NCBI GenBank assembly: GCA_964486045.1
Contig: CAZALK010000003.1
Location: forward strand, 192,001 to 256,000
Origin: an uncultured archaeon
Lineage (GTDB): Archaea; Asgardarchaeota; Lokiarchaeia; Sigyniarchaeales; SOKP01
Direction: 5' to 3'
Length of the DNA: 64,000 nt
The notes below the pieces were generated by a model. The model did not search any database. It was not told the origin of the DNA and saw nothing but the letters and a program-made list of their open reading frames with translations. A program made the translations under genes and the position numbers. Each line of letters begins with the position of its first letter. Within the stretch, counting starts at the first letter, position 1. Of the stretch, positions 15,751-49,514 are shown piece after piece.

Positions 15751-15823
15751 TTGCCCACTCATAAAGTTATATATTGATATTAATGTAGATGATAAATATA
15801 TAAAATTAAGTGACCATAATATA

Positions 15824-18589
15824 TCAATCAATTATAGTAGCTGATTCTGTCTTTTCAGGACTTTTTCTAAGTTCCTCAGTGTTTACTCTCTCTAGGAAGT
15901 AAGGATCTATAATTTTTGAGATTTGTTTAAAGTCGTAATGTTTAGCATCAATGGCTTTTAATCGACAAACTGATGAGCATTTTCCGCATCCTTTACAGAG
16001 AGCTGAATTGATGACAGCTTTTTTAATAGGTAAGCTAACATCTTCATAATTTCTTTCAGCATCTACAAGATCAATGGCATTGAAAGCACAAACTTCTTCG
16101 CATCTCCCACAACCATTACATTTATCGGGATTAACGATTAAGTCCTTGAAAAAGCATTCTATTGATAGTAGAGATGATAAGTACTCTAACTTTGTTGTAG
16201 ATATTTGTTTTCGGCTTAAAAATCTGCTTGCTCTTCCAGCAGCCCCTTTTGCTTGAGCTATTGAATCTTGTATATTCTTTGGAAACTCGGCACTACCACA
16301 AATGAAAACTCCATTAGTCACAAAATCTAGCGGTCTCAATTTCTCATGGGCTTCAGGAAAAAAGCCATTTTCATCCAACGGAACATCTAACATTTCGGCT
16401 AATTCTATTAAATTTGGAGAAGGAACTAAAGGAGTAGCTAATACAATGAGATCGGTTTCATGATCAATTAGATTATTTAAATCGTCACGTACTTTTATAT
16501 GATACTTTTCGGGGATTTTGGTAACCTGAGTTATTTCGGGAATATTATCTAAATTATACCTTAAGCAATTCGCAATTGTGTTCTGTTCATTAAAGATATC
16601 TTCGAATTCTGTTTTCACGGTATGAAGATCTCTGTAAAATACAAGCATTTCTAGCTCAGGTTTTAATTCTTTTAGGAGATTTATGTTCTTCAAAGCATTG
16701 GTGCAACACACATTAGAACAATATGGCAATCCATCCATTTGTCTTGAGTTAACACACAAAATAGTTGTAATATGATAAATTTTATCAAGCCAAGATCGAT
16801 CTTCATTTTTTAATTTTTGTTCTAACTCTAATAACGTTATTACATTCTGGTTTTCTTCATTATATTGAAATAACCGTTTTGGCTTAAATTCTTGACTTCC
16901 CGTTGCTACTATAATAACTCCAATATTTAAACTTTGAAGCTTTCCATCGTTATTTCCGGTTTTTACTAAATAATTTCCAATACTTCCATTAATTTCTCTA
17001 ACCTGGGAATTTAACAAAACATGAATCTTTTTACAATCTTCAATTTCTTTGATTATATCGTTTAAAAACTCAGATGCTTTTTGTTGGGTAGGAGATATTA
17101 TGTTCACATCATTTAACATTCCCCCAAGAATCTTTTGTTTTTCTACAATATATGTTTCAAAACCTTGTTTGCTTATATTTAGAGCTGTCGTCATCCCTGA
17201 AACGCCACCACCTATTATTAAAGCAGAAGGTGTAATATCTATTATATTTTCTTTTGGTAATATATCAATTTCTCGTTCTTTAATTTGAGAATATTTAGCA
17301 GAGGGTAATAAAGCAGCAATTTGCCCTGCAACTCCACTTGCATTAACTACTGTTTCAGAAATATTCATTGGGCCCTTACACAAACCAGATAAGAAGATTC
17401 CATCTCTTGAGGATAAAGAATTATTAGAGTAAGATCTCTCCTTAAAAAAATTGTAGTTATTTAATTCAATCCCTAAGATTTTAGCTAAATCTTTTGAACC
17501 ATTAGAAGGAATCAATGGAGCAGAGAGCACTACTAAGTTTGCTCGAAAGTTTTTTGATTGCCCTGCTTTTAAATCATCGTAATGGATAATTAAATCATTT
17601 GTTTCCTCATCTTCTTCAATTTCCCTAATTAAAGAATGAACAAATTCAATTTCGTAATCATCATGGGCATTTTTAGTATACTCATAGAAGTTTTTTCCAA
17701 AAACTCTGATATTGTGACGGAATACCGTTATCTCTGAGTTTTCAGCGCTTATTTTTGTATTAACTGCGTTTTTTGTGGTATACATACAACACACGCGAGA
17801 ACAATAGGGAGCAGCTTCCTCTGACATAATACATGAGATAAATGCAATTTTTTTAGGTTCTTCTTCGTCGCTAGGCCTTAAAATATGTCCTCCAAAAGGA
17901 CCTGAGGGACTTATTATTCTTTCGTACTCCAAAGCGTTGACAACATTTTTAAATTGATAACCCCATTTTGATGATAATTCCTCACCAAGCATTTCAAATC
18001 CAGTAGAAACCACAATTGCTCCTACATTCAACTCAATTTCTTGGGATTCTTGTTCGAAATCGATAGCTCCGGAATTTCCAGCCTTACAGACTTTTTTGCA
18101 CACTCCACACACATTTCTTTGTAAATACAGACATAAATCAGGATCTATTAGATACACAGGGGGAGTTGCTTGTGGGAAGGGTATATATGCTGATTTTCTT
18201 TTTCCCAGATTCATATCAAATAGATTTGGTACTTGAATTTTAGGGCATTTTGCTGCACAGTCTCCGCATCCCCTACATAGTGCCTCGTCTACATAGCGTG
18301 GCTTTTTGAGAATTTTTACTGTGAAATTACCAACTTCTCCGGTAACTTCCTGAAGTTCACTCAAAGTTAACAGTTCAATATCTGGGTTCCTATGAACGGC
18401 CACCATTTTAGGTGCAAGAACACACAAACTACAATCATTCGCAGGGAATAATTTATCAAATTGCGCCATTCTACCTCCGATTGATGGTTCTTTTTCTATC
18501 AAATAGACTTTAAATCCTAATTCCGTTAAATCTAGGGATGATTGAATACCCGCGATTCCTCCACCAATAACTAATACAGATCCTTCCAT
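15824..18589 (-). CDS. hdrA: heterodisulfide reductase subunit A-like flavoprotein (double FAD domain, Cys form)
   Basis: Two GGG(I/V)xG FAD motifs, FPANDCSLC, ferredoxin motifs, YCSRVCC, EAHEKLRPLD. Confidence 0.92.
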   Translation of the reverse strand: MEGSVLVIGGGIAGIQSSLDLTELGFKVYLIEKEPSIGGRMAQFDKLFPANDCSLCVLAPKMVAVHRNPDIELLTLSELQEVTGEVGNFTVKILKKPRYVDEALCRGCGDCAAKCPKIQVPNLFDMNLGKRKSAYIPFPQATPPVYLIDPDLCLYLQRNVCGVCKKVCKAGNSGAIDFEQESQEIELNVGAIVVSTGFEMLGEELSSKWGYQFKNVVNALEYERIISPSGPFGGHILRPSDEEEPKKIAFISCIMSEEAAPYCSRVCCMYTTKNAVNTKISAENSEITVFRHNIRVFGKNFYEYTKNAHDDYEIEFVHSLIREIEEDEETNDLIIHYDDLKAGQSKNFRANLVVLSAPLIPSNGSKDLAKILGIELNNYNFFKERSYSNNSLSSRDGIFLSGLCKGPMNISETVVNASGVAGQIAALLPSAKYSQIKEREIDILPKENIIDITPSALIIGGGVSGMTTALNISKQGFETYIVEKQKILGGMLNDVNIISPTQQKASEFLNDIIKEIEDCKKIHVLLNSQVREINGSIGNYLVKTGNNDGKLQSLNIGVIIVATGSQEFKPKRLFQYNEENQNVITLLELEQKLKNEDRSWLDKIYHITTILCVNSRQMDGLPYCSNVCCTNALKNINLLKELKPELEMLVFYRDLHTVKTEFEDIFNEQNTIANCLRYNLDNIPEITQVTKIPEKYHIKVRDDLNNLIDHETDLIVLATPLVPSPNLIELAEMLDVPLDENGFFPEAHEKLRPLDFVTNGVFICGSAEFPKNIQDSIAQAKGAAGRASRFLSRKQISTTKLEYLSSLLSIECFFKDLIVNPDKCNGCGRCEEVCAFNAIDLVDAERNYEDVSLPIKKAVINSALCKGCGKCSSVCRLKAIDAKHYDFKQISKIIDPYFLERVNTEELRKSPEKTESATIID

Positions 18590-19004
18590 ATTATATTTTC
18601 CTCTATTAGTTCAATTTTGAAAAAAAGTTTAGATAATTTTTGCTATTCATAGTTATGTAAAATCATTAATTTAAATATTACTCTTTTAAAATGACGGAAT
18701 TTAAAAAAAGATTCTAGTTTTGCGATCCAGTCTGATAATTTCTACTATCATTTGAAGGGTTTCAGACATTATTATTTTTTATTTTACCGATCTCAGTAAA
18801 TATGCATGATAGTAATAACTTTGGTTAAATATGTGATGTATTTCTTACAAATTTGCTGATAAATTACTGTTATGGAGCAAAGCAGATTTAGAAGGTGATC
18901 ATTTTCCAACACTTACTACCCTTAAAATTTTGAATTTTCAGAAAAATTTTAACTTTACAGAAATAATATTACTTTGAAGTTTCGGTAAATTTTTTAATCC
19001 GAAA

Positions 19005-19262
19005 TTGCACAAATACTTTAGAAACAGCAAACAAAAGCAGGGATGTAACCCAAAAATGGATAAAAAATTAAAAGTTGCATTAATCTCTTTTGCGATTGGT
19101 ATGATTCTATTAATTTTCTTTTTCATATTACCATGGGGGCAACCATTTTTAGGTATAAAAGTAGTTTTGTTAATTTTTATGGTAATTTGCTTCTTTATAG
19201 CAATTTATATGATATTGGAAAAATTAGGTGTTGTTGAAGTATTAGATGATATATTTAACTAA
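19005..19262 (+). CDS. small 2-TM membrane protein (true start probably the internal MDKKLK ATG)
   Basis: Two hydrophobic helices. Confidence 0.55.
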   Translation: MHKYFRNSKQKQGCNPKMDKKLKVALISFAIGMILLIFFFILPWGQPFLGIKVVLLIFMVICFFIAIYMILEKLGVVEVLDDIFN

Positions 19263-19462
19263 AAAAAGTGTTAAAAATATAAATACCGCAATCATTCCAA
19301 ACAAAAATTTAGATCTTGGAACTCTTTTATACAATTGGAAATACACAAACCTAAAACGCATTTATTGGTGAACTTTTCACCAAATTTGTTGATAAAATGT
19401 GAAGAAATATTAAAAATATCTAATTAGTTATATTTGAACTAAATTTTGAATTTTTAAAATCT

Positions 19463-20185
19463 TCATTCAGTTGGCGATCTCACTTCAGCTTTAATAGTTT
19501 TAGATTTTTTCTTTTTTACATATATTATCCCGATAATTGATATGACTCCTATAAGACCAACAATTAATAGAATTAAAAGAATATTTATCGGTTCAGGAAG
19601 GTTTGGAACTGAAAATTTTATCATCTGCATATAAATATCGGAGTTTAAATTTCTCCGATCTTCCCATACTATGAATATGTTGTCTTCTGCATTCATTACC
19701 ATTTGCATATATCGCTGACTGTTGTTCGCATCAGATATAACCATCCCGTTCTCCTCCCAAAGTGAATCACCATTAGAATCAATTCGTTGAGCATAAATGT
19801 CTGAGTTACCATTTCTATCATCTTGCCATGTAATAATTGCGCCACCAGTTTCACTCGGGATAAGTTCAGCATCCCTTTGGTCTCCACTAGCGTTAGTCAG
19901 CTCTTTACCATTTAAACCCCATTTCAAGATGCCATTAGAATCGACATTTTGAAGGTAAATATCATAACTCGAACCACTTCTGCGGTCTTCCCAGGCGACA
20001 ATAACTCCTCCTGAATTATCAGTTATTAATTTCGGAGATTCTTCATCACTACTAAGATTTGTAATTTGGATATCATTTGTTGTCCACTCTTATGTAGCAA
20101 AAGCCTCTGTGTATAGCACAAACTCAGGAGAGAGAACTATTAAAATAATAATGGTAAAGCTAAATCGATTTCCTACTTTAATCAT
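19463..20185 (-). pseudogene. secreted/membrane-anchored repeat protein interrupted by TAA
   Basis: ATG 20185 and signal peptide, in-frame TAA at 20090-20092, then three W(E/Q)DxR..(S/Y)DIY repeats and a C-terminal TM with basic tail, all in one frame. Confidence 0.7.
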
Positions 20186-20231
20186 TGAATATCAGATAAT
20201 ACTTTATTGTTTATCTAAATGTTTGTGTTTA

Positions 20232-20681
20232 CTACGCTATAGGTCCTAATTTTTTTATTTGATCAGTAAATTCCGTGATTAAATCTGCAAAACGTTTACC
20301 TTCAGAAGCGCTTATCCACTCAAGCTTAACCCGTCTGCCGTCAATTCCTAGTTGTTGAATAATAATACTATGTAATCTTTTAAACCGTTCTTCTGTATAT
20401 TCATTTCCGGATATATAGTGACAATCTCCTATGTGACATCCAGAAATCAAGATTCCATCTGCTCCACTTTTTAAGGCCTTTATGATAAATGAGGGATCAA
20501 CCCTTCCTGAGCACATAACACGCACTATTCTCATATTAGGAGGATATTGAAATCGAGAAACTCCTGCTAAATCGGCTCCAGCATAAGAACACCAATTACA
20601 ACAAAACACGAGCAGCTCTGGTGACCAAATATTTTCTTCCATTTTGGAAGGTTTTTTATTAGATATATTAGAATTTGACAT
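20232..20681 (-). CDS. mvhD: MvhD/FlpD [2Fe-2S] hydrogenase iron-sulfur subunit (Cys form)
   Basis: FCCNWCSYAGAD, RVMCSGRVD, GCHIGDCHY, WISASEG. Confidence 0.95.
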   Translation of the reverse strand: MSNSNISNKKPSKMEENIWSPELLVFCCNWCSYAGADLAGVSRFQYPPNMRIVRVMCSGRVDPSFIIKALKSGADGILISGCHIGDCHYISGNEYTEERFKRLHSIIIQQLGIDGRRVKLEWISASEGKRFADLITEFTDQIKKLGPIA

Positions 20682-20929
20682 TGAGAGTCACATCAGCTTT
20701 AATATCTATTCATCTTGTTTTTAAATTAGTTTTTATTAATAAAAAGATTTATTTTTAATATTAATAGTAGTGTCAAGTATCTATTAAATTTATTTTTAGT
20801 TTCGGAATTAAGTAATCTTGCCTTTAAATTTAATTAATTCATCAATACTCATAGAATCTAAATCTTCGTAAGAAATATTAGAAGATCCAAAGAAATTAAT
20901 GAAATGAGTAGCGCTCTTTTGTTCAGATT

Positions 20930-42860: not shown

Positions 42861-43064
42861 TCCCTGTGTAAATATACTCTGACTTGGTGTTAACCATAGA
42901 CATTGAACCTTTTCTCGTTTTAGTTTTTAATTTAGATTATCCTCTCCATGGTTTTTTCCATAGCGTTTTAGGATCTAACCCGTTTTTAAGCTGATTTTAG
43001 AGCCGAATATTATATTTTCGCTGAAATATTAAAAAAAGTAATAAAAGGTTATATTCGCATTAGG

Positions 43065-43301
43065 TTATTCCACAGAGCTGGGCACAGGGTCGGTGTATGT
43101 GGAATCACAGTGGGCACATACTTTATATCCTTTTGTAAAGTCCAACTCTTCTATTTTCCCACAGTATGGGCATTTTGGCATATTCCGTCTTTTTCGTTCC
43201 TTTCGTTTATTTAACCATTGATTTAGAAAGCGTTGAACAACGATTACAATAACTCCTGAAGTAATCCCTGAAATCATCCCTGTTATTATAGCTTCGAGCA
43301 T
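43065..43301 (-). CDS. small TM + zinc-ribbon protein
   Basis: N-terminal TM helix, CPYC...CAHC. Confidence 0.65.
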   Translation of the reverse strand: MLEAIITGMISGITSGVIVIVVQRFLNQWLNKRKERKRRNMPKCPYCGKIEELDFTKGYKVCAHCDSTYTDPVPSSVE

Positions 43302-43348
43302 AATAATTATCAAATTTCATTTCATACTAATAAGGTTAACTATTCATT

Positions 43349-43598
43349 TGCCACCACTTGTGGTTAATTAAAAAAAGAAGAAAAATATTATTTTTTATTA
43401 AAAATCCAATTCAATCTCTATATTCTTCTTTTATTAAAGGCACACCATTAATATTATCAATACCTATCATATCATTTACTTTTTTAACAATAATCTCTTC
43501 AATCTTTTTTATTTGTTCTTCAGTAAAGATTTCACTCATCTTTCTTTCTCACCCCCTTAATTGTTTCTGCCACCGCTGGTGGTTAATTAAAAAAAGAA
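43349..43598. repeat. pair of 31-bp direct repeats (43349-43379, 43568-43598)
   Basis: tgccacc(a/g)ct(t/g)gtggttaattaaaaaaagaa, 29/31 identical. Confidence 0.85.
43411..43539 (-). CDS. 42-aa hypothetical protein
   Basis: MSEIFTEEQIKKIEEIIVKKVNDMIGIDNINGVPLIKEEYRD, preceded by SD-like GGGGGTGA. Confidence 0.6.
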   Translation of the reverse strand: MSEIFTEEQIKKIEEIIVKKVNDMIGIDNINGVPLIKEEYRD

Positions 43599-43877
43599 AG
43601 AAATTAAGGTTTATTTTAGGAATAAACAATCGAGCGTTTATCCCCTTAAAAGCCTACGATTTGACGATTTGGAGACCACACACAAGAAAATAATAATCCA
43701 AATCCTCAAGACCGAATTATAATCATAAGTTCACTACCTAATGCACTTATTATTAGATGGACGAAGTAAAACGGGGATCGGCTTTTAATCTTAGTTCCCA
43801 ATGTTCTTCCTTATTAAAATATATAATAGATTTTGAAAAGTTTTAATGCTCATAATATCTTATTTTGGTTGTTAAAA

Positions 43878-45380
43878 CTATTCTTTTTTATTATCTAAAA
43901 TTATTGGTTTACATCCTTTTCGTTTTGATCCGGCTATTCGTTCCAACAGGGCTAATCCGGGTTTAATTTCTTTTAGATTTTTGGATTCAATTAAACCAGC
44001 TTTAACTGCATCATTAAAGATTTTATCACCTTGCTTAGATCGGGTTATAACGGAAGACCATCCACTCGGAGACCCTATTGATCCCACAGAAATGTCAGCA
44101 TAATCTGCTGTAAGGTCTTCACAAAATCCGCAATTTGGTCTAGCATATGATTTTACCTCTTTAAGAGGGACTTTTTCGACTTCTCCAGATTTCAAGGATA
44201 TAATAAACTTGCCACCACTTATGTCCATTTTTGTTATTTCGTTAAGTTTTTTCTCGAATTTTTCTCCTGATAATTTAAAAACATTTTCAAACGAAAAAGC
44301 TTCCATACAAAATAGTCCAATTGTGTATTTGATATTTTTAAAGAATGGCAATCCCCCTGGATAAAAACTTCCTTTCTGAAGAGCAGTTATCATACATGGA
44401 GTACCAACAACAGCGATATTTTCATATTTTTTTGTTTTACTAATAATTGCTAAAGTTGACGCATTTGCATATTTAGTTCCACCCGTTTCATATAAATCTT
44501 TTACATCATCAACAATAACTGGTTCTGGTCTCCATAAATCATCAGCATGTTTCACAGCTACTATGGCATCTACTAACTTTTTTTTTAGTAAAAATTCGAG
44601 TAGAGCAGTGACTATTCCTCCGTCTTGTCGGACCTTTTTAATCTCTTCATTAGTAGTTGATGCTGAATAAACATTTTTGTATCCATTTATCTTAGCTGAA
44701 AATGTCAATGACTTATCGACTTTGCTAATACTTAGACCTGCTTGTGCAATTGAAAACGATTTACTGCACACGGAATAACATATTCCACATTTCATACAAA
44801 TTTCGTCATCAATTTCAAGCGTATCTGCTGTAACTGTTATGGCATCTACTGGACATACAGATGAACACCAACCACAATTACAACATACTCCGGAATCGAA
44901 CACAAGGGAAACAGCGTCAAAAAAATTCTCAATAAAATCATCTGCTAAAGGTTTCAACTGATATCTATAAAAGTAACTTTTGACTTCAACTTCTTTTTCT
45001 ACTCCCTTTACTTTCTTTGTGATTTTTTTTACCTTTACTTCAATATGTTCATCTACATACCCTTGCTCTTTTAAATAAATAACATCACGAATTACATTAG
45101 CAGCGGGAAATTCTTCAATTTTTTGTGCGATTTCTTCTAAGAATAACGGCTCTAAACCCTTTAATCTCTCCAAAATTAATTTACGTTCCGTCTCAGCGTC
45201 AATCATTGAGTCCAGAATTTCATAGAACTCATTTTCATCATATTTTCCAATATTAAGAATCTCGCCCTTTGCTTCAAAAAAAGCTCGAACTTGAAAATTT
45301 GCTGATCCTTGATATGTAGCTTCCATTAACTCCTTTGGAGATATTTTGGTAAATAATTTGTTATTTACAGTTTCGACCAT
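43878..45380 (-). CDS. frhB: FrhB-family protein with N-terminal helical/winged-helix extension and ferredoxin
   Basis: CCNCGWCSSVCP, CMKCGICYSVC, QDGGIVT, VGTPC, GLFCME, CGFCED...ADISVG. Confidence 0.9.
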   Translation of the reverse strand: MVETVNNKLFTKISPKELMEATYQGSANFQVRAFFEAKGEILNIGKYDENEFYEILDSMIDAETERKLILERLKGLEPLFLEEIAQKIEEFPAANVIRDVIYLKEQGYVDEHIEVKVKKITKKVKGVEKEVEVKSYFYRYQLKPLADDFIENFFDAVSLVFDSGVCCNCGWCSSVCPVDAITVTADTLEIDDEICMKCGICYSVCSKSFSIAQAGLSISKVDKSLTFSAKINGYKNVYSASTTNEEIKKVRQDGGIVTALLEFLLKKKLVDAIVAVKHADDLWRPEPVIVDDVKDLYETGGTKYANASTLAIISKTKKYENIAVVGTPCMITALQKGSFYPGGLPFFKNIKYTIGLFCMEAFSFENVFKLSGEKFEKKLNEITKMDISGGKFIISLKSGEVEKVPLKEVKSYARPNCGFCEDLTADYADISVGSIGSPSGWSSVITRSKQGDKIFNDAVKAGLIESKNLKEIKPGLALLERIAGSKRKGCKPIILDNKKE

Positions 45381-45445
45381 TCTTTCTTCAATTTCCTATT
45401 AATTTTAATATATTTTTAATACTATTTTTATAAAAACTTGTAAGA

Positions 45446-45513
45446 ACCCCTTCCTTTGCAGGGCTAGTCATCTTATAACTAAAATTTTTTTATAAGATTC
45501 ATTCAGCAGGGGT
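45446..45513 (-). promoter_or_regulatory. eukaryote-type SECIS element (core 45463-45507) within a putative three-way junction
   Basis: mRNA: ACCCCU GCUG A AUGA A UCUUAUAA [AAAAAUUUUAG] UUAUAAGA UGAC UAGC CCU[GCAA]AGG A AGGGGU. Shows helix I, AUGA/GA core, perfect 8-bp helix II and an A-rich loop. Confidence 0.85.
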
Positions 45514-45960
45514 AATTAATGATTCTTCTTTCTTTTTTGAAATTTTTACTCCTAATTTTTTTATCGGATTGGGACCTTCTCTTTCTACCTTTTCGTATGC
45601 ATCTTCTACGCTTTTCACGAATTTCTCACTTTCAGCTCCGCTTAACCAGTACATATTTACTCTCTGATGTCCAAAGCCTCTAGAAGCTAATATCCTATTT
45701 GCTAAGTCTACATGTGTTTGTGCGGAAAAGTTTCCTTGTTTGTATTGGCATTCATTGGGGCGTCATCCTACTACCATGACTCCATCTGCTCCCGACAAAA
45801 TGGTATAGAGAATATGCTTTAAATCGACTCTTCCTGTACATCGCACTTTGATTATTTTCACCGAAGTGGTATATTTCAACCGAGAAACACCTGCTAAGTC
45901 GGCAGCACTATACCCTCATTTCAAGCAAGCAAATGCAATTATCTGGTAGTTATTTTCCAT
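45499..45960 (-). CDS. mvhD: selenoprotein MvhD/VhuD (Sec15, Sec66), 153 aa
   Basis: MENNYQIIAFACLK-U-GYSAADLAGVSR...VRCTGRVD...GVMVVG-U-RPNECQY. UGAs at 45916-45918 and 45763-45765 align with Cys in the paralog at 20232-20681. Confidence 0.93.
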
Positions 45961-45964
45961 TTGT

Positions 45965-47941
45965 TTATACACCTCCTAAAAGACCAGTAATTTCAGCGAA
46001 TAATTGATAGTCTCGATAATATAATATATCGATCGCTTGAGTAGGACAACACGTAGCGCAAATACCGCAGCCATCACAGTTTATAGTATCTACAAAAGCT
46101 CCAATTTCCTTATCGATTTTTATAGCATTCTTTGGGCAAGCCTTTTCACAACGTCTACATGAAATACAATATTCACTTGCTACTTGAGCAGTAATCAGTT
46201 CAATATCTACTTCTCCAGGTGATGTTAATTCAGCGACTTTACTTGCTGCCGCTCTAGCTTGTGATACTGAATATGCTATATTTTTCGGTCCTTGTGCGAA
46301 GCCAGCAATATATATCCCTTTTGTTTTAGTTTCTTGAGGCATTAAACCAAAGTGAGATTCAGTAAGGAAACCATATATATTAGTATCAAGGTTCAATACT
46401 TTGGCAATTTGGTTCGTACCTTTTGAAGGGAGTGCTGCTGAGGAGAGTATTACTAAGTCCGCATCAATTTTAATGATTTCGTCAGTTAACGATGAATACA
46501 CTCGAAGATTAACATTTTTTGTTTCAGGATCTTCAGAAATCTCCCCAACTTTACCGCGAATCATCCTAATACCAGAATCTTTGGCACGTTGGTAATATTC
46601 TTCAAAACCTTTTTCACCAGCCCTGATGTCAATGTAACAGATAGTAATATTCGCGTCAGGAAATTCTTCTAACAATAATTTTCCATTCTTAAGCGATAGC
46701 ATACAGCAAACCCCGCTACAGTAAGTTCTTTCTGTAGTTCTACTCCCTACGCATTGTATGAATACGATTTCTTTCGGTTTTTTTTTATCATCAGATAGTC
46801 TTCTTACATGCCCTTCTAATGGTCCGTTCGGAGCTAGCATTCGTTCTAATTGAACTTGAGTTATAACATTGTCAAATTCTCCGTATCCGTATTCCCCAAA
46901 TGGTTCATACATATCCCAACCAGTTGCGATTATGATTGAACCGACATCTAGATTAACTTCTTTTGGTAATTGACTAAAATCAATAGTACCTAATTCGCAA
47001 GCGTCTATACATGCGAAACACTCAACACAGGCATTTCTATTTATGTCATAGAGAAAGGGTACAGCTTGACCAAATGCTATATCAATTGCTTTTCGTGCTC
47101 CTAAATTTTCATCAAAGAAGTTTGAAGTATAGACAGGGCACACTTCTGAGCATGCACCACAACCATTACACTCATCCGTAACAAAGCGCGGTTTCATTTC
47201 TACTTTTACTCTATAATTACCGACATACCCTTCGACTTCCTTCACTTCACTATAACTTAAAATCTCAATATTCTCGTTTCTATTGACATTTAGCATCACA
47301 GGTCCGCATATTCAAATCGAACAATCATCCGTGGGAAATGTACGATCCAGTTGGGCCATCCGTCCCCCTATAGTGGTTTTGTTTTCCACAAGATAAACTT
47401 TTATGCCTTGATTCGCAAGATCTAGAGCCGCGTTCATCCCAGCAATCCCAGCTCCTACAATTAAAGAAGCCTTTGTAACTGGAACGGTTTTGACAGGTAT
47501 ATCTTCTAAGTTCTTTGCCCGTTCTATCCCGCTTTTTACCAAAATTTTTGCTTTCTCTAAAGCCTCTGAGTTATGTTTTGTACACCATGAAACATGTTCC
47601 CGTATATTTACCATTTGGAAGTAATAGGGACTTAGATCTGTCTTTTTAATCGTGCTTCGATAAATAGGTTCATGTGTGCGTGGTGTTCATGCAGCAGCGA
47701 CAATACGATTCAAGTTTTTCTCTTTGATATCTTCCATAATTTCATTCTGCGCAGCTTCAGTTCATAGAAAACCGTTCTTTTTTGATAATACTATTTCATC
47801 CCCTAAACTTTGAGCATAATCTACGAGCGCATTAACATCTATTTTGCTTTTAATGTTAACTCCTCACTCACAAGAATAAAATCCAATCCGTAGTTCTTCA
47901 GTTTCTTTATTTTCACTAGTTTCATTCCGTTGACTATTCAT
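45965..47941 (-). CDS. hdrA: selenoprotein HdrA with four Sec (U26, U60, U85, U210), 658 aa
   Basis: Single frame from ATG 47941 with UGA at 47864-66, 47762-64, 47687-89 and 47312-14. Each aligns with Cys in paralog 25923-29015. Joins ORFs 47312-47614 and 45965-47299. Confidence 0.93.
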
Positions 47942-48218
47942 TTTTTACACCTTTTTTAAATTTCCACCTCAATTATTGATTATCAATTTCAACCATAAGG
48001 TTGATTTTAATTTTAATTTTCAAAATTAAATCACTTCTAATTTAAATTTTATTGATTTTTAAAACTTTTAATCTTTTTGTTTATCAAATTAAACAAGATT
48101 TTGTGGATTGCTTACTTACTTAAACCATTTTTAATGGGATCGGTTTAAAATTTCGGAAAGCATGAGAAATTAGGATGATGAATGATCAATAAGTATAGTG
48201 CGAAAAAACTTTGTAAAT

Positions 48219-49514
48219 TTAAATACTTAGAATTTCTTTTATAAGAGAGATTATTGTTTTTGTATTGAAAACAGATGTTTCTGCTGTTTTAATAAATTCT
48301 TTTATTTGATCATGATAATGTTTTTCAAAATGATTAAGAAAGTAAACTAATCTCTCTTTTAAACTTTGATTAGCGGATTTAGACAAAAATAAAGCTAATT
48401 TTATAAATTTACCATATGTTGCATGGATGTATAAGCCTTTATAATTAATTTCTTCCATAGAAGTAGTGCCCCCTAGTTGCGACATAAAAGAATCCATAGC
48501 TGACAAAAATCCTGATATTAGCTCTTTATCAACAGGGTAGTCTTCGCTTGCATGAGATACCATGTTTACCCCTGATATTTTATCAATGATTAATAGGCTT
48601 CTGAAGATATCATTGAATTTTGGCTTAACAGCTATTGAATGCTCCTCGGCAAGTAAAATTTTGCTGGGAAGTAATTCATACATAGTATAAGATTTAGATT
48701 TGTAAGCTTCCTTTTCTTTAAAATAATAACTGGATATAGTAGTTAATCGGGATGGTGCTCGAATTGGTTCATGTGGTAATTTTTTAATATACTCATCTCG
48801 CAACCTTGTGTCATGATCTTTAGATTTTTTGCCTTTAGTTATACCATAAATTTTCTGATGAATAGGATCAACTACGTAAAACCAAGCACGTAATTTCTGC
48901 ATATCTGAAACCAATCTTTTAAATCCAATATTTCGAACACCCCTGGGAGTGGTAACAAAAACAGTCCATAGAACTATTTTTGAGGCTTCACTGATCTGAT
49001 AAAAAGTGTCTTTATAATTTTCTTCTGTCAGTTCCTCTCCAGTCCTTATAAATACACCTTCAGTTCTTAATAATGGTTTTTTCTTAATTAAATAAAGATC
49101 TATTAAAAAATCTTTGATATCTGATGCATTGTAGACAATTATTCCCCAATCCGCTCCCTGATCTGCAAATGCGTCAATTAATTCTTGTTTGGAGATAAAA
49201 TCAAATCGTGTGATGTAATCACTTAGTTTCTCATCTTTTGTGATAGTATCTCCAATGAATGTTAAAAAAGTAGAATATTTCATCTGGAGATCAGGACTAG
49301 TTTGATATTTCTTAAAAAGATGAATGGATATAAGATCAAGTAATTCTAATTTAGTTAATGACTCATCCTCTGGGGTTGGAATATTATTTGTTTCCATGAA
49401 ATCATAAATTTCCTTGAACCTACTTCTTACGATTAAACAGTTCAAACATAAAATACCAATTTTCCCTTCGTTTTCTTTTTGAATCGTTTCTAAAATTTCA
49501 GTTGAGGATGGCAA
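48219..49514 (-). CDS. hypothetical protein with C-terminal longin/roadblock-like domain
   Basis: C-terminal LLIIDKISGV...LISGFLSAMDSFMSQL, typical of Asgard longin-like domains. Confidence 0.7.
   Translation of the reverse strand: MPSSTEILETIQKENEGKIGILCLNCLIVRSRFKEIYDFMETNNIPTPEDESLTKLELLDLISIHLFKKYQTSPDLQMKYSTFLTFIGDTITKDEKLSDYITRFDFISKQELIDAFADQGADWGIIVYNASDIKDFLIDLYLIKKKPLLRTEGVFIRTGEELTEENYKDTFYQISEASKIVLWTVFVTTPRGVRNIGFKRLVSDMQKLRAWFYVVDPIHQKIYGITKGKKSKDHDTRLRDEYIKKLPHEPIRAPSRLTTISSYYFKEKEAYKSKSYTMYELLPSKILLAEEHSIAVKPKFNDIFRSLLIIDKISGVNMVSHASEDYPVDKELISGFLSAMDSFMSQLGGTTSMEEINYKGLYIHATYGKFIKLALFLSKSANQSLKERLVYFLNHFEKHYHDQIKEFIKTAETSVFNTKTIISLIKEILSI

Follow-up and report, generated by a model that had tools for sequence, protein, structure and literature searches.

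How six in-frame UGA codons in two neighbouring cistrons can be read as selenocysteine (Sec) from one Sec insertion sequence (SECIS), situated behind the second cistron, is the question raised by an hdrA-mvhD gene pair of an uncultured archaeon of the Lokiarchaeia (Sigyniarchaeales, SOKP01; assembly GCA_964486045.1). The pair lies in a stretch of 64,000 nt of contig CAZALK010000003.1 (positions 192,001 to 256,000), which was analysed at its full length and is called the window here. A first-pass annotation of the window had proposed that a 3' SECIS acts across the cistron boundary on a polycistronic mRNA. In this study, we found that comparative evidence from 46/46 orthologous loci, from paralogous gene pairs and from Cys-type controls supports this proposal. 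Judged from these sequence comparisons, one 3' SECIS on a shared mRNA quite probably serves both cistrons and all six UGAs. The shared-SECIS reading is not new, having been published for Lokiarchaeota in 2016 (PMC4989117) and repeated in 2024 (PMC11227280). All coordinates of the locus (hdrA, mvhD and SECIS) refer to the minus strand of the window, and the features are listed in Table 1.

The product of hdrA contains Fer4 and FAD/NAD-binding domains (Pfam) and could be aligned along its entire length to solved structures of HdrA (645 bits against 9sfi_A and 619 bits against 5odc_A). The hdrA stop and the mvhD start had been described as 4 nt apart, and the sequence bears this out, the spacer being ACAA. 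Because mvhD begins 4 nt past the UAA of hdrA, hdrA has no 3' untranslated region (UTR) of its own. The orthologue set consisted of 46 loci from Promethearchaeota (Loki-type) metagenome-assembled genomes, in which the gap between hdrA and mvhD was 2-30 nt. In the orthologue alignment, synonymous diversity fell over the last ~20 codons of hdrA and the first codons of mvhD, in line with a region of translational coupling. Upstream of hdrA, too, there is a Shine-Dalgarno sequence that is conserved.

The first-pass annotation had counted six UGAs over the two cistrons, and we confirmed them as four in hdrA and two in mvhD. Codon 210 of hdrA aligned to a residue given as X in the chain sequence of 9sfi_A. 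Both mvhD codons, 15 and 66, aligned to X in 9sfi_K; in 9sw2_D, the residue aligned with each is Cys. The X residues of 9sfi_A and 9sfi_K are read here as Sec. Codon 60 of hdrA, with 27 TGA against 17 TGY among the orthologues, has the appearance of a classic Sec/Cys exchange position. Past the first UGA, the mean amino-acid identity of hdrA was 80% among 40 non-redundant orthologues, and the third positions of identical codons were only 52% identical. Since amino acids are thus far better kept than third positions, hdrA is translated and under selection and not a pseudogene; purifying selection downstream of its UGAs is strong. These results suggest that the six UGAs almost certainly encode selenocysteine.

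The stop codons of the two genes were also informative. The hdrA stop was UAA or UAG in 46/46 orthologues and never UGA, and UGA accounted for 16.8% of the stops of long open reading frames (ORFs) genome-wide. Such avoidance of UGA as the hdrA stop is what a cis-acting SECIS on the same mRNA predicts. A seventh UGA (45501-45499), inside the AUGA core of the SECIS, is the stop of mvhD, and about two-thirds of the orthologues likewise have the mvhD stop at the UGA within this core. The distances from the UGAs to the AUGA of the SECIS (45502) were 2364, 2262, 2187 and 1812 nt for hdrA and 416 and 263 nt for mvhD.

By its gene content, the genome can decode Sec. A tRNA-Sec gene was located at C15:137829-137921, adjoined by SepSecS at C15:139200-140357. 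A KTI12/PSTK-like gene was found on C1, as was a gene for a Sec-containing SelD, which is followed by a SECIS. A SelB-like factor (C15:132874-133761), 4 kb from tRNA-Sec, scored 231 bits, just under the cut-off of the bacterial model. The SelB-like factor, tRNA-Sec and SepSecS are clustered within 8 kb (C15:132874-140357).

The SECIS after mvhD has every feature published for the lokiSECIS, namely AUGA, a 9-bp stem, an 11-nt A-rich loop ending in AG, GA and a position behind the coding sequence. Among ten paralogous SECIS elements of this genome, the AUGA column and the loop columns A18-A20, A25 and G26 were invariant. RNAalifold recovered the same nine pairs of helix II unprompted, and all nine change on both sides among the paralogous elements. 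The minimum free energy fold of 45400-45500 alone was uninformative (z = -0.5), and the SECIS was present only in the centroid structure. The left edge of the element had been placed at 45446. This position marks the end of an outer closing helix, described below; the core SECIS itself covers only 45502-45468.

We searched for further elements with a strict pattern (AUGA, 9-bp stem, 11-nt loop and GA or AA, with at most one mismatch) and with a covariance model. The strict pattern matched once in the 64-kb window. Genome-wide it gave 74 matches in 5.18 Mb compared with 44-58 in shuffled genomes, and the bare pattern is therefore not specific. Ten of the 74 matches shared a loop motif, and 9/10 of these directly followed UGA-containing ORFs, which comprised the three Sec-type mvhD genes, selD, two Prx-like genes and several small proteins. 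The covariance model, R1, was built from these ten elements; the pairing in this training set is partly by construction, which does not hold for the conserved loop, for the gene context or for matches beyond the training set. With filters off, R1 gave a single strong match in the window, at 45504-45466 (54.5 bits, E ~1e-11). A covariance scan of 43700-48300 had been called for by the first-pass annotation, and on both strands of this interval R1 found this one SECIS and nothing else above 11.2 bits. The next-best match, at 11 bits, is noise, as the background over the whole window amounted to 34 matches at 9-17 bits. The claim that the sole convincing SECIS lies after mvhD, ~2.4 kb from the first UGA, was thus confirmed, the distance being exactly the 2364 nt given above. 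Genome-wide, R1 gave 12 elements of at least 30 bits, with a clear gap down to 21 bits. Eleven of the 12, including both that lie beyond the training set, directly follow UGA-containing ORFs.

R1 had not been trained on any of the 46 orthologous loci, and in each of them it gave exactly one strong SECIS match (34-54 bits), located at the end of mvhD. No credible match was found in hdrA or its leader in any of the 46. Two more Sec-type hdrA-mvhD pairs are present in the same genome, at C7:190153-192670 (L003) and C17:4067-6583 (L008), with 3 and 2 Sec in HdrA, respectively. Their mvhD starts apparently overlap the ends of hdrA by 23 and 26 nt, and each pair has a single SECIS match, after mvhD. 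A SECIS was therefore present at all three Sec-type mvhD genes of the genome, and R1 gave no match at its six Cys-type MvhD genes.

We propose the following mechanism. The hdrA and mvhD cistrons would be carried on one mRNA with a single Loki-type SECIS at its 3' end. In this element, a kink-turn-like core of AUGA and GA would be combined with a helix of 9 bp and an A-rich loop of 11 nt, all of it embedded in a three-way junction. Presumably together with an archaeal Sec-specific elongation factor and a binding protein, it would have all six upstream UGAs read as Sec. Its reach would include the four UGAs of hdrA, 1.8-2.4 kb away across the cistron boundary, and the two of mvhD at 263-416 nt. 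The seventh UGA, in the core, would act as the mvhD stop because a ribosome arriving there has already unwound the SECIS. Co-transcription, the cis action of the SECIS over ~2.4 kb and the protein partners are what we infer in this scheme.

Several points weigh against it. The searched literature yielded neither transcript nor protein evidence for hdrA-mvhD pairs of Lokiarchaeia. SBP2 was not found in Loki (PMC4989117). In the only functional test found, a Loki vhuU SECIS was inactive in Methanococcus maripaludis (PMC11881835). Ribosomes terminating on mvhD must also melt the SECIS core and the closing helix, helix I, which leaves the simultaneous service to hdrA ribosomes unexplained. Finally, the first ~18 codons of hdrA, which are poorly aligned, and the leader could be assessed less cleanly than the remaining gene.

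The shared element was weighed against three other explanations. In one of them, hdrA has a cryptic recoding signal of its own that is not a lokiSECIS (for instance a signal of the methanogen GAA_A type, a hairpin of bacterial type just 3' of every UGA, or one residing in the 5' leader), and the SECIS behind mvhD serves mvhD only. Low synonymous diversity in hdrA codons 1-18 and a conserved block upstream of hdrA would agree with such a signal, and one methanogen selenoprotein gene reportedly has its SECIS in the 5' UTR. However, the 5' dip falls in the poorly aligned N-terminus, the upstream block resembles a promoter with a Shine-Dalgarno sequence, and a hairpin on the hdrA start codon, where the N-terminus of the window differs, had a consensus energy of 0.0. 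In a scan of synonymous diversity over the 40 non-redundant orthologues, values were ~0.9-1.0 of expectation along the body of hdrA, including around all four UGAs, and showed no constraint there. Dips occurred only at the poorly aligned 5' end of hdrA, at the hdrA/mvhD junction and at the 3' end of mvhD, the site of helix I. Sliding-window RNAalifold over 24 orthologues gave nothing below -2 kcal/mol in the coding sequence of hdrA or mvhD; the SECIS block had z = -9. For a methanogen-type GAA_A element, these generic scans of structure and synonymous constraint in hdrA and mvhD were empty, no dedicated model being used. Rfam showed no SECIS family at gathering score in the window, nor in 43000-49000 with E relaxed to 10. 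RNAz analysis by Mariotti et al. likewise found no other structure (PMC4989117). The first-pass annotation had named a second SECIS within hdrA or mvhD or upstream as the finding that would speak against it, and none was detected by R1 or by the synonymous-site and RNAalifold scans. A separate signal for hdrA is, in our judgement, improbable.

Two explanations dispense with a shared message or with a functional hdrA. If hdrA and mvhD were transcribed separately, the SECIS would have to work in trans on hdrA, or the UGAs would have to be read through with Cys or Trp independently of any SECIS. The constraint in the last 60 nt of hdrA leaves room for an internal promoter, but the 4-nt spacer with a Shine-Dalgarno sequence inside hdrA forms a typical coupled-operon junction, and the genes of orthologues and paralogues lie 2-30 nt apart or overlap. 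We know of no trans-acting SECIS in any domain, and SECIS-free read-through of three to five successive UGAs would be very inefficient. Separate transcripts would also leave aside that UGA is never the hdrA stop in the 46/46 orthologues, as a cis SECIS predicts, and we consider them very unlikely. The UGAs of hdrA could also be true stops, in a decaying pseudogene or a source of short fragments only, and translation table 11 does split hdrA into ORFs of 444 and 100 amino acids (aa). Yet the frame is open over 658 codons, the 40 non-redundant orthologues share 80% amino-acid identity at synonymous sites near saturation, every UGA coincides with a conserved Cys or Sec position in the solved structures of HdrA, and the UGA codons are kept in 42-45 orthologues. 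The conservation data have in effect refuted the pseudogene already, and its probability is negligible. We retain the reading in which one SECIS on a shared mRNA serves hdrA and mvhD.

The region around the core suggested a larger RNA element. In a position-constrained permutation test of helix I with 12 paralogous elements, matched flanks scored 13.2 compared with 7.6 (standard deviation 3.2) for mismatched flanks, and 0/20000 permutations reached the observed total. Compensatory variants of helix I were many in the orthologues, for example ACUCCC/GGGAGU, GCCUCU/AGAGGU and AAUCCC/GGGAUU. An unconstrained pairing test of helix I gave p = 0.64; this test failed because A/T-rich flanks pair by chance. 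MAFFT with RNAalifold on the extended elements recovered helix II alone and missed the outer helix because the flanks are out of register. In all 12 SECIS elements of the genome and in the orthologues, a side hairpin was seen by eye, with no statistics; its loop was mostly GCAA or GCGA. Helix I is well supported by covariation, and the SECIS sits in a three-way junction made up of this closing helix, the core with helix II and the small GCAA-loop side hairpin. We tentatively suggest, with doubts that prevail at present, that the functional Loki SECIS is this ~68-nt three-way junction (45513-45446) rather than the 35-nt hairpin of the literature. If so, terminating mvhD ribosomes, by unwinding the junction, could gate the availability of the SECIS to hdrA ribosomes 2 kb upstream. 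A requirement for the three-way junction might also explain the failure of the minimal Loki SECIS in M. maripaludis.

This arrangement has been described before. Mariotti et al. (2016) reported that HdrA and VhuD of Lokiarchaeota are invariably found in tandem and very closely spaced, with only a single lokiSECIS, downstream of VhuD, shared by HdrA and VhuD on a polycistronic mRNA (PMC4989117). One lokiSECIS was said to be able to support up to six UGAs over ~2 kb, HdrA was never found to end in UGA, and the stop codon may fall in AUGA, as reported for VhuU.1 (PMC4989117). The lokiSECIS was defined in that paper by AUGA 5' of the stem, a 9-bp stem, an 11-nt loop and then GA (AA in some genes), the loop's first five nucleotides being A-rich and the last a G, usually after A. 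Huang et al. (2024) extended the shared-SECIS arrangement across Asgard archaea (PMC11227280). The published tandems (PMC4989117, PMC11227280) and the pair studied here have in common the gene order, the strand and the very short junction. They also share multiple Sec in HdrA including the canonical one at ~200, two Sec in VhuD, one lokiSECIS after vhuD for up to six UGAs, and an hdrA never stopped by UGA. There is no difference in kind; here the genome is another one and the span is 2.36 kb. Differences in detail are that the mvhD stop itself lies in AUGA here, where the 2016 paper reports this position for VhuU.1, and that the pairs of this genome have a 4-nt gap and apparent overlaps of 23 and 26 nt, compared with 28 nt for the overlapping pair in PMC4989117.

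The outer architecture is the part that differs from these descriptions. In the main texts of PMC4989117 and PMC11227280, the account is limited to the 9-bp stem with its loop and to a lower stem given in generic terms. Huang et al. (PMC11227280) mention no more than a generic lower stem and an internal loop, and neither main text contains the side hairpin or the three-way junction of the present element. This architecture is possibly the only part of the present analysis not yet in print. Like the eukaryotic SECIS (RF00031, SECIS_1), the element is 3' of the coding sequence and would act at a distance. Unlike the eukaryotic SECIS, the element has an upper helix of just 9 bp and a loop with a conserved AG at its end, the side hairpin takes the place of the 3' internal loop, the mRNA is a bicistronic prokaryotic one, and no SBP2 is known in the lineage. 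The Rfam model RF00031 gave no match here, even at E up to 10.

The VhuD SECIS of Methanococcales and Methanopyrus, a methanogen-type element with an extra AUGA...GAC/AAC motif, is also 3' of vhuD with an AUGA/GA motif, and two Sec codons, separated by 50 codons, are served by a single element (PMC4989117). In methanogens, however, hdrA has its own SECIS (PMC11227280), and the element has a GAA_A bulge architecture. In the vertebrate selenoprotein P mRNA, several UGAs are likewise decoded from distal 3' elements, but this mRNA is eukaryotic, with a single cistron and two SECIS elements (PMC4989117).

If the shared-SECIS reading is true, it would be the longest-range and only inter-cistronic SECIS action known (six UGAs, up to 2.4 kb). 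It would also represent a plausible intermediate towards the eukaryotic 3'-UTR SECIS, a case already made in 2016. The locus provides a clean and very well conserved example with an internal control, the Cys-type pairs without SECIS, and a fuller definition of the RNA element. It may help in designing a first functional assay and leaves existing knowledge unchanged. A reporter in a Sec-competent archaeal host would need Loki factors because a vhuU SECIS from Loki showed no activity in M. maripaludis (PMC11881835).

Table 1. Features of the hdrA-mvhD locus and its SECIS, in the order in which they occur on the minus strand of the window.
Feature	Position	Strand	Description or evidence
hdrA	45965..47941	-	heterodisulfide-reductase subunit A-like flavoprotein; 658 aa with UGA=Sec; UAA stop
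hdrA Sec codon 26 (UGA)	47864..47866	-	aligns to Cys in 9sfi_A; TGA in 42/42 aligned orthologues
hdrA Sec codon 60 (UGA)	47762..47764	-	aligns to Cys in 9sfi_A; orthologues 27 TGA, 17 TGT/TGC
hdrA Sec codon 85 (UGA)	47687..47689	-	aligns to Cys in 9sfi_A; TGA in 43/43 orthologues
hdrA Sec codon 210 (UGA), canonical HdrA Sec position	47312..47314	-	TGA in 45/45 orthologues
Cistron junction (Shine-Dalgarno-like motif, hdrA UAA and spacer)	45961..45976	-	direct sequence reading
Shine-Dalgarno-like GGAGGUG, within hdrA 3' end	45976-45970	-	direct sequence reading
hdrA stop UAA	45967-45965	-	direct sequence reading
hdrA/mvhD spacer ACAA, 4 nt	45964-45961	-	direct sequence reading
mvhD/vhuD	45499..45960	-	153 aa and UGA stop (45501-45499); Pfam FlpD PF02662, 143 bits
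mvhD start ATG	45960-45958	-	direct sequence reading
mvhD Sec codon 15 (UGA)	45918-45916	-	TGA in 46/46 orthologues
mvhD Sec codon 66 (UGA)	45765-45763	-	TGA in 46/46 orthologues
Helix I 5' strand ACCCCU, in last mvhD codons	45508..45513	-	pairs with 45451-45446; permutation test; compensatory variants
lokiSECIS core	45468..45502	-	only strict pattern match in window; R1 54.5 bits; RNAalifold same 9 pairs
SECIS AUGA (its UGA is the mvhD stop)	45502-45499	-	direct sequence reading and pattern match
SECIS helix II 5' arm	45498-45490	-	9 Watson-Crick pairs with 45478-45470
SECIS 11-nt apical loop AAAAAUUUUAG	45489-45479	-	starts AAAAA, ends AG
SECIS helix II 3' arm	45478-45470	-	pairs with 45498-45490
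SECIS GA	45469-45468	-	directly 3' of helix II
Side hairpin CCU-GCAA-AGG, between core GA and helix I 3' strand	45453..45462	-	by inspection
Helix I 3' strand AGGGGU	45446..45451	-	permutation test; compensatory variants
U5 run, 10 nt past helix I	45432..45436	-	direct sequence reading
FrhB/FdhB-like gene, 500 aa, downstream of SECIS	43878..45380	-	Pfam FrhB_FdhB_N, FrhB_FdhB_C and Fer4

An A/T-rich conserved block at 48041-48097 (minus strand), ~100-150 nt before the hdrA start, is common to most orthologues; in the window it contains an inverted repeat, TTGTTTA…TAAACAA, followed by a TATA-like stretch. This block probably serves the hdrA-mvhD unit as promoter or operator. A U4-U5 run was found directly past helix I in many orthologues, and the U5 run of the window could be an archaeal oligo-U terminator. 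The upstream block and the U-runs past the SECIS would fit a bicistronic unit ending at the SECIS, without proving such a unit. The FrhB/FdhB-like gene downstream has zero in-frame UGA and is an intact ORF under table 11; having no in-frame UGA, it is independent of the SECIS.

Several weaker matches were inspected and rejected. The Rfam matches SNORA16 and TeloSII_ncR30 are chance matches. A 15-bit match at 19426-19468 is at the end of an ORF without UGA and has a 15-nt loop and two mismatches. Weak matches within hdrA in some orthologues (the best, L023 2394-2432, with 20.6 bits) lie on a conserved stretch coding for RMIRGKVGE, and their pairing is unconserved; the equivalent site of the window scored 5.7 bits. 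In some orthologues there are also weak matches of up to 27 bits at ~2.3 kb downstream; these have no AUGA and lie on a conserved coding stretch.

The window also contains Cys-type relatives of the pair, 25 kb off. A Cys-type MvhD gene at ~20232-20693 and a 927-aa protein with two HdrA-like halves at 15806-18589, both on the minus strand, have no SECIS. For the Sec pair, these MvhD/HdrA-like genes (15806-20693) are a natural counterpart of the Cys type. Elsewhere in the genome, two of the six Cys-type MvhD-domain genes are fusions of the HdrA-MvhD-like kind, their open frames being 1155 and 815 aa long.

Other SECIS elements of the genome, among those at C11:149404, C25:39050, C35:3783, C3:142939 and C16:46380, follow small unfamiliar UGA-containing ORFs. 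These encode a Cys-rich protein of ~86 aa with four Sec, a protein with adjacent Sec-Sec (…DUUAD…) and two small membrane proteins with one Sec each. The C16 element has no obvious selenoprotein ORF upstream. The small ORFs followed by a SECIS are possible new Asgard selenoprotein families.

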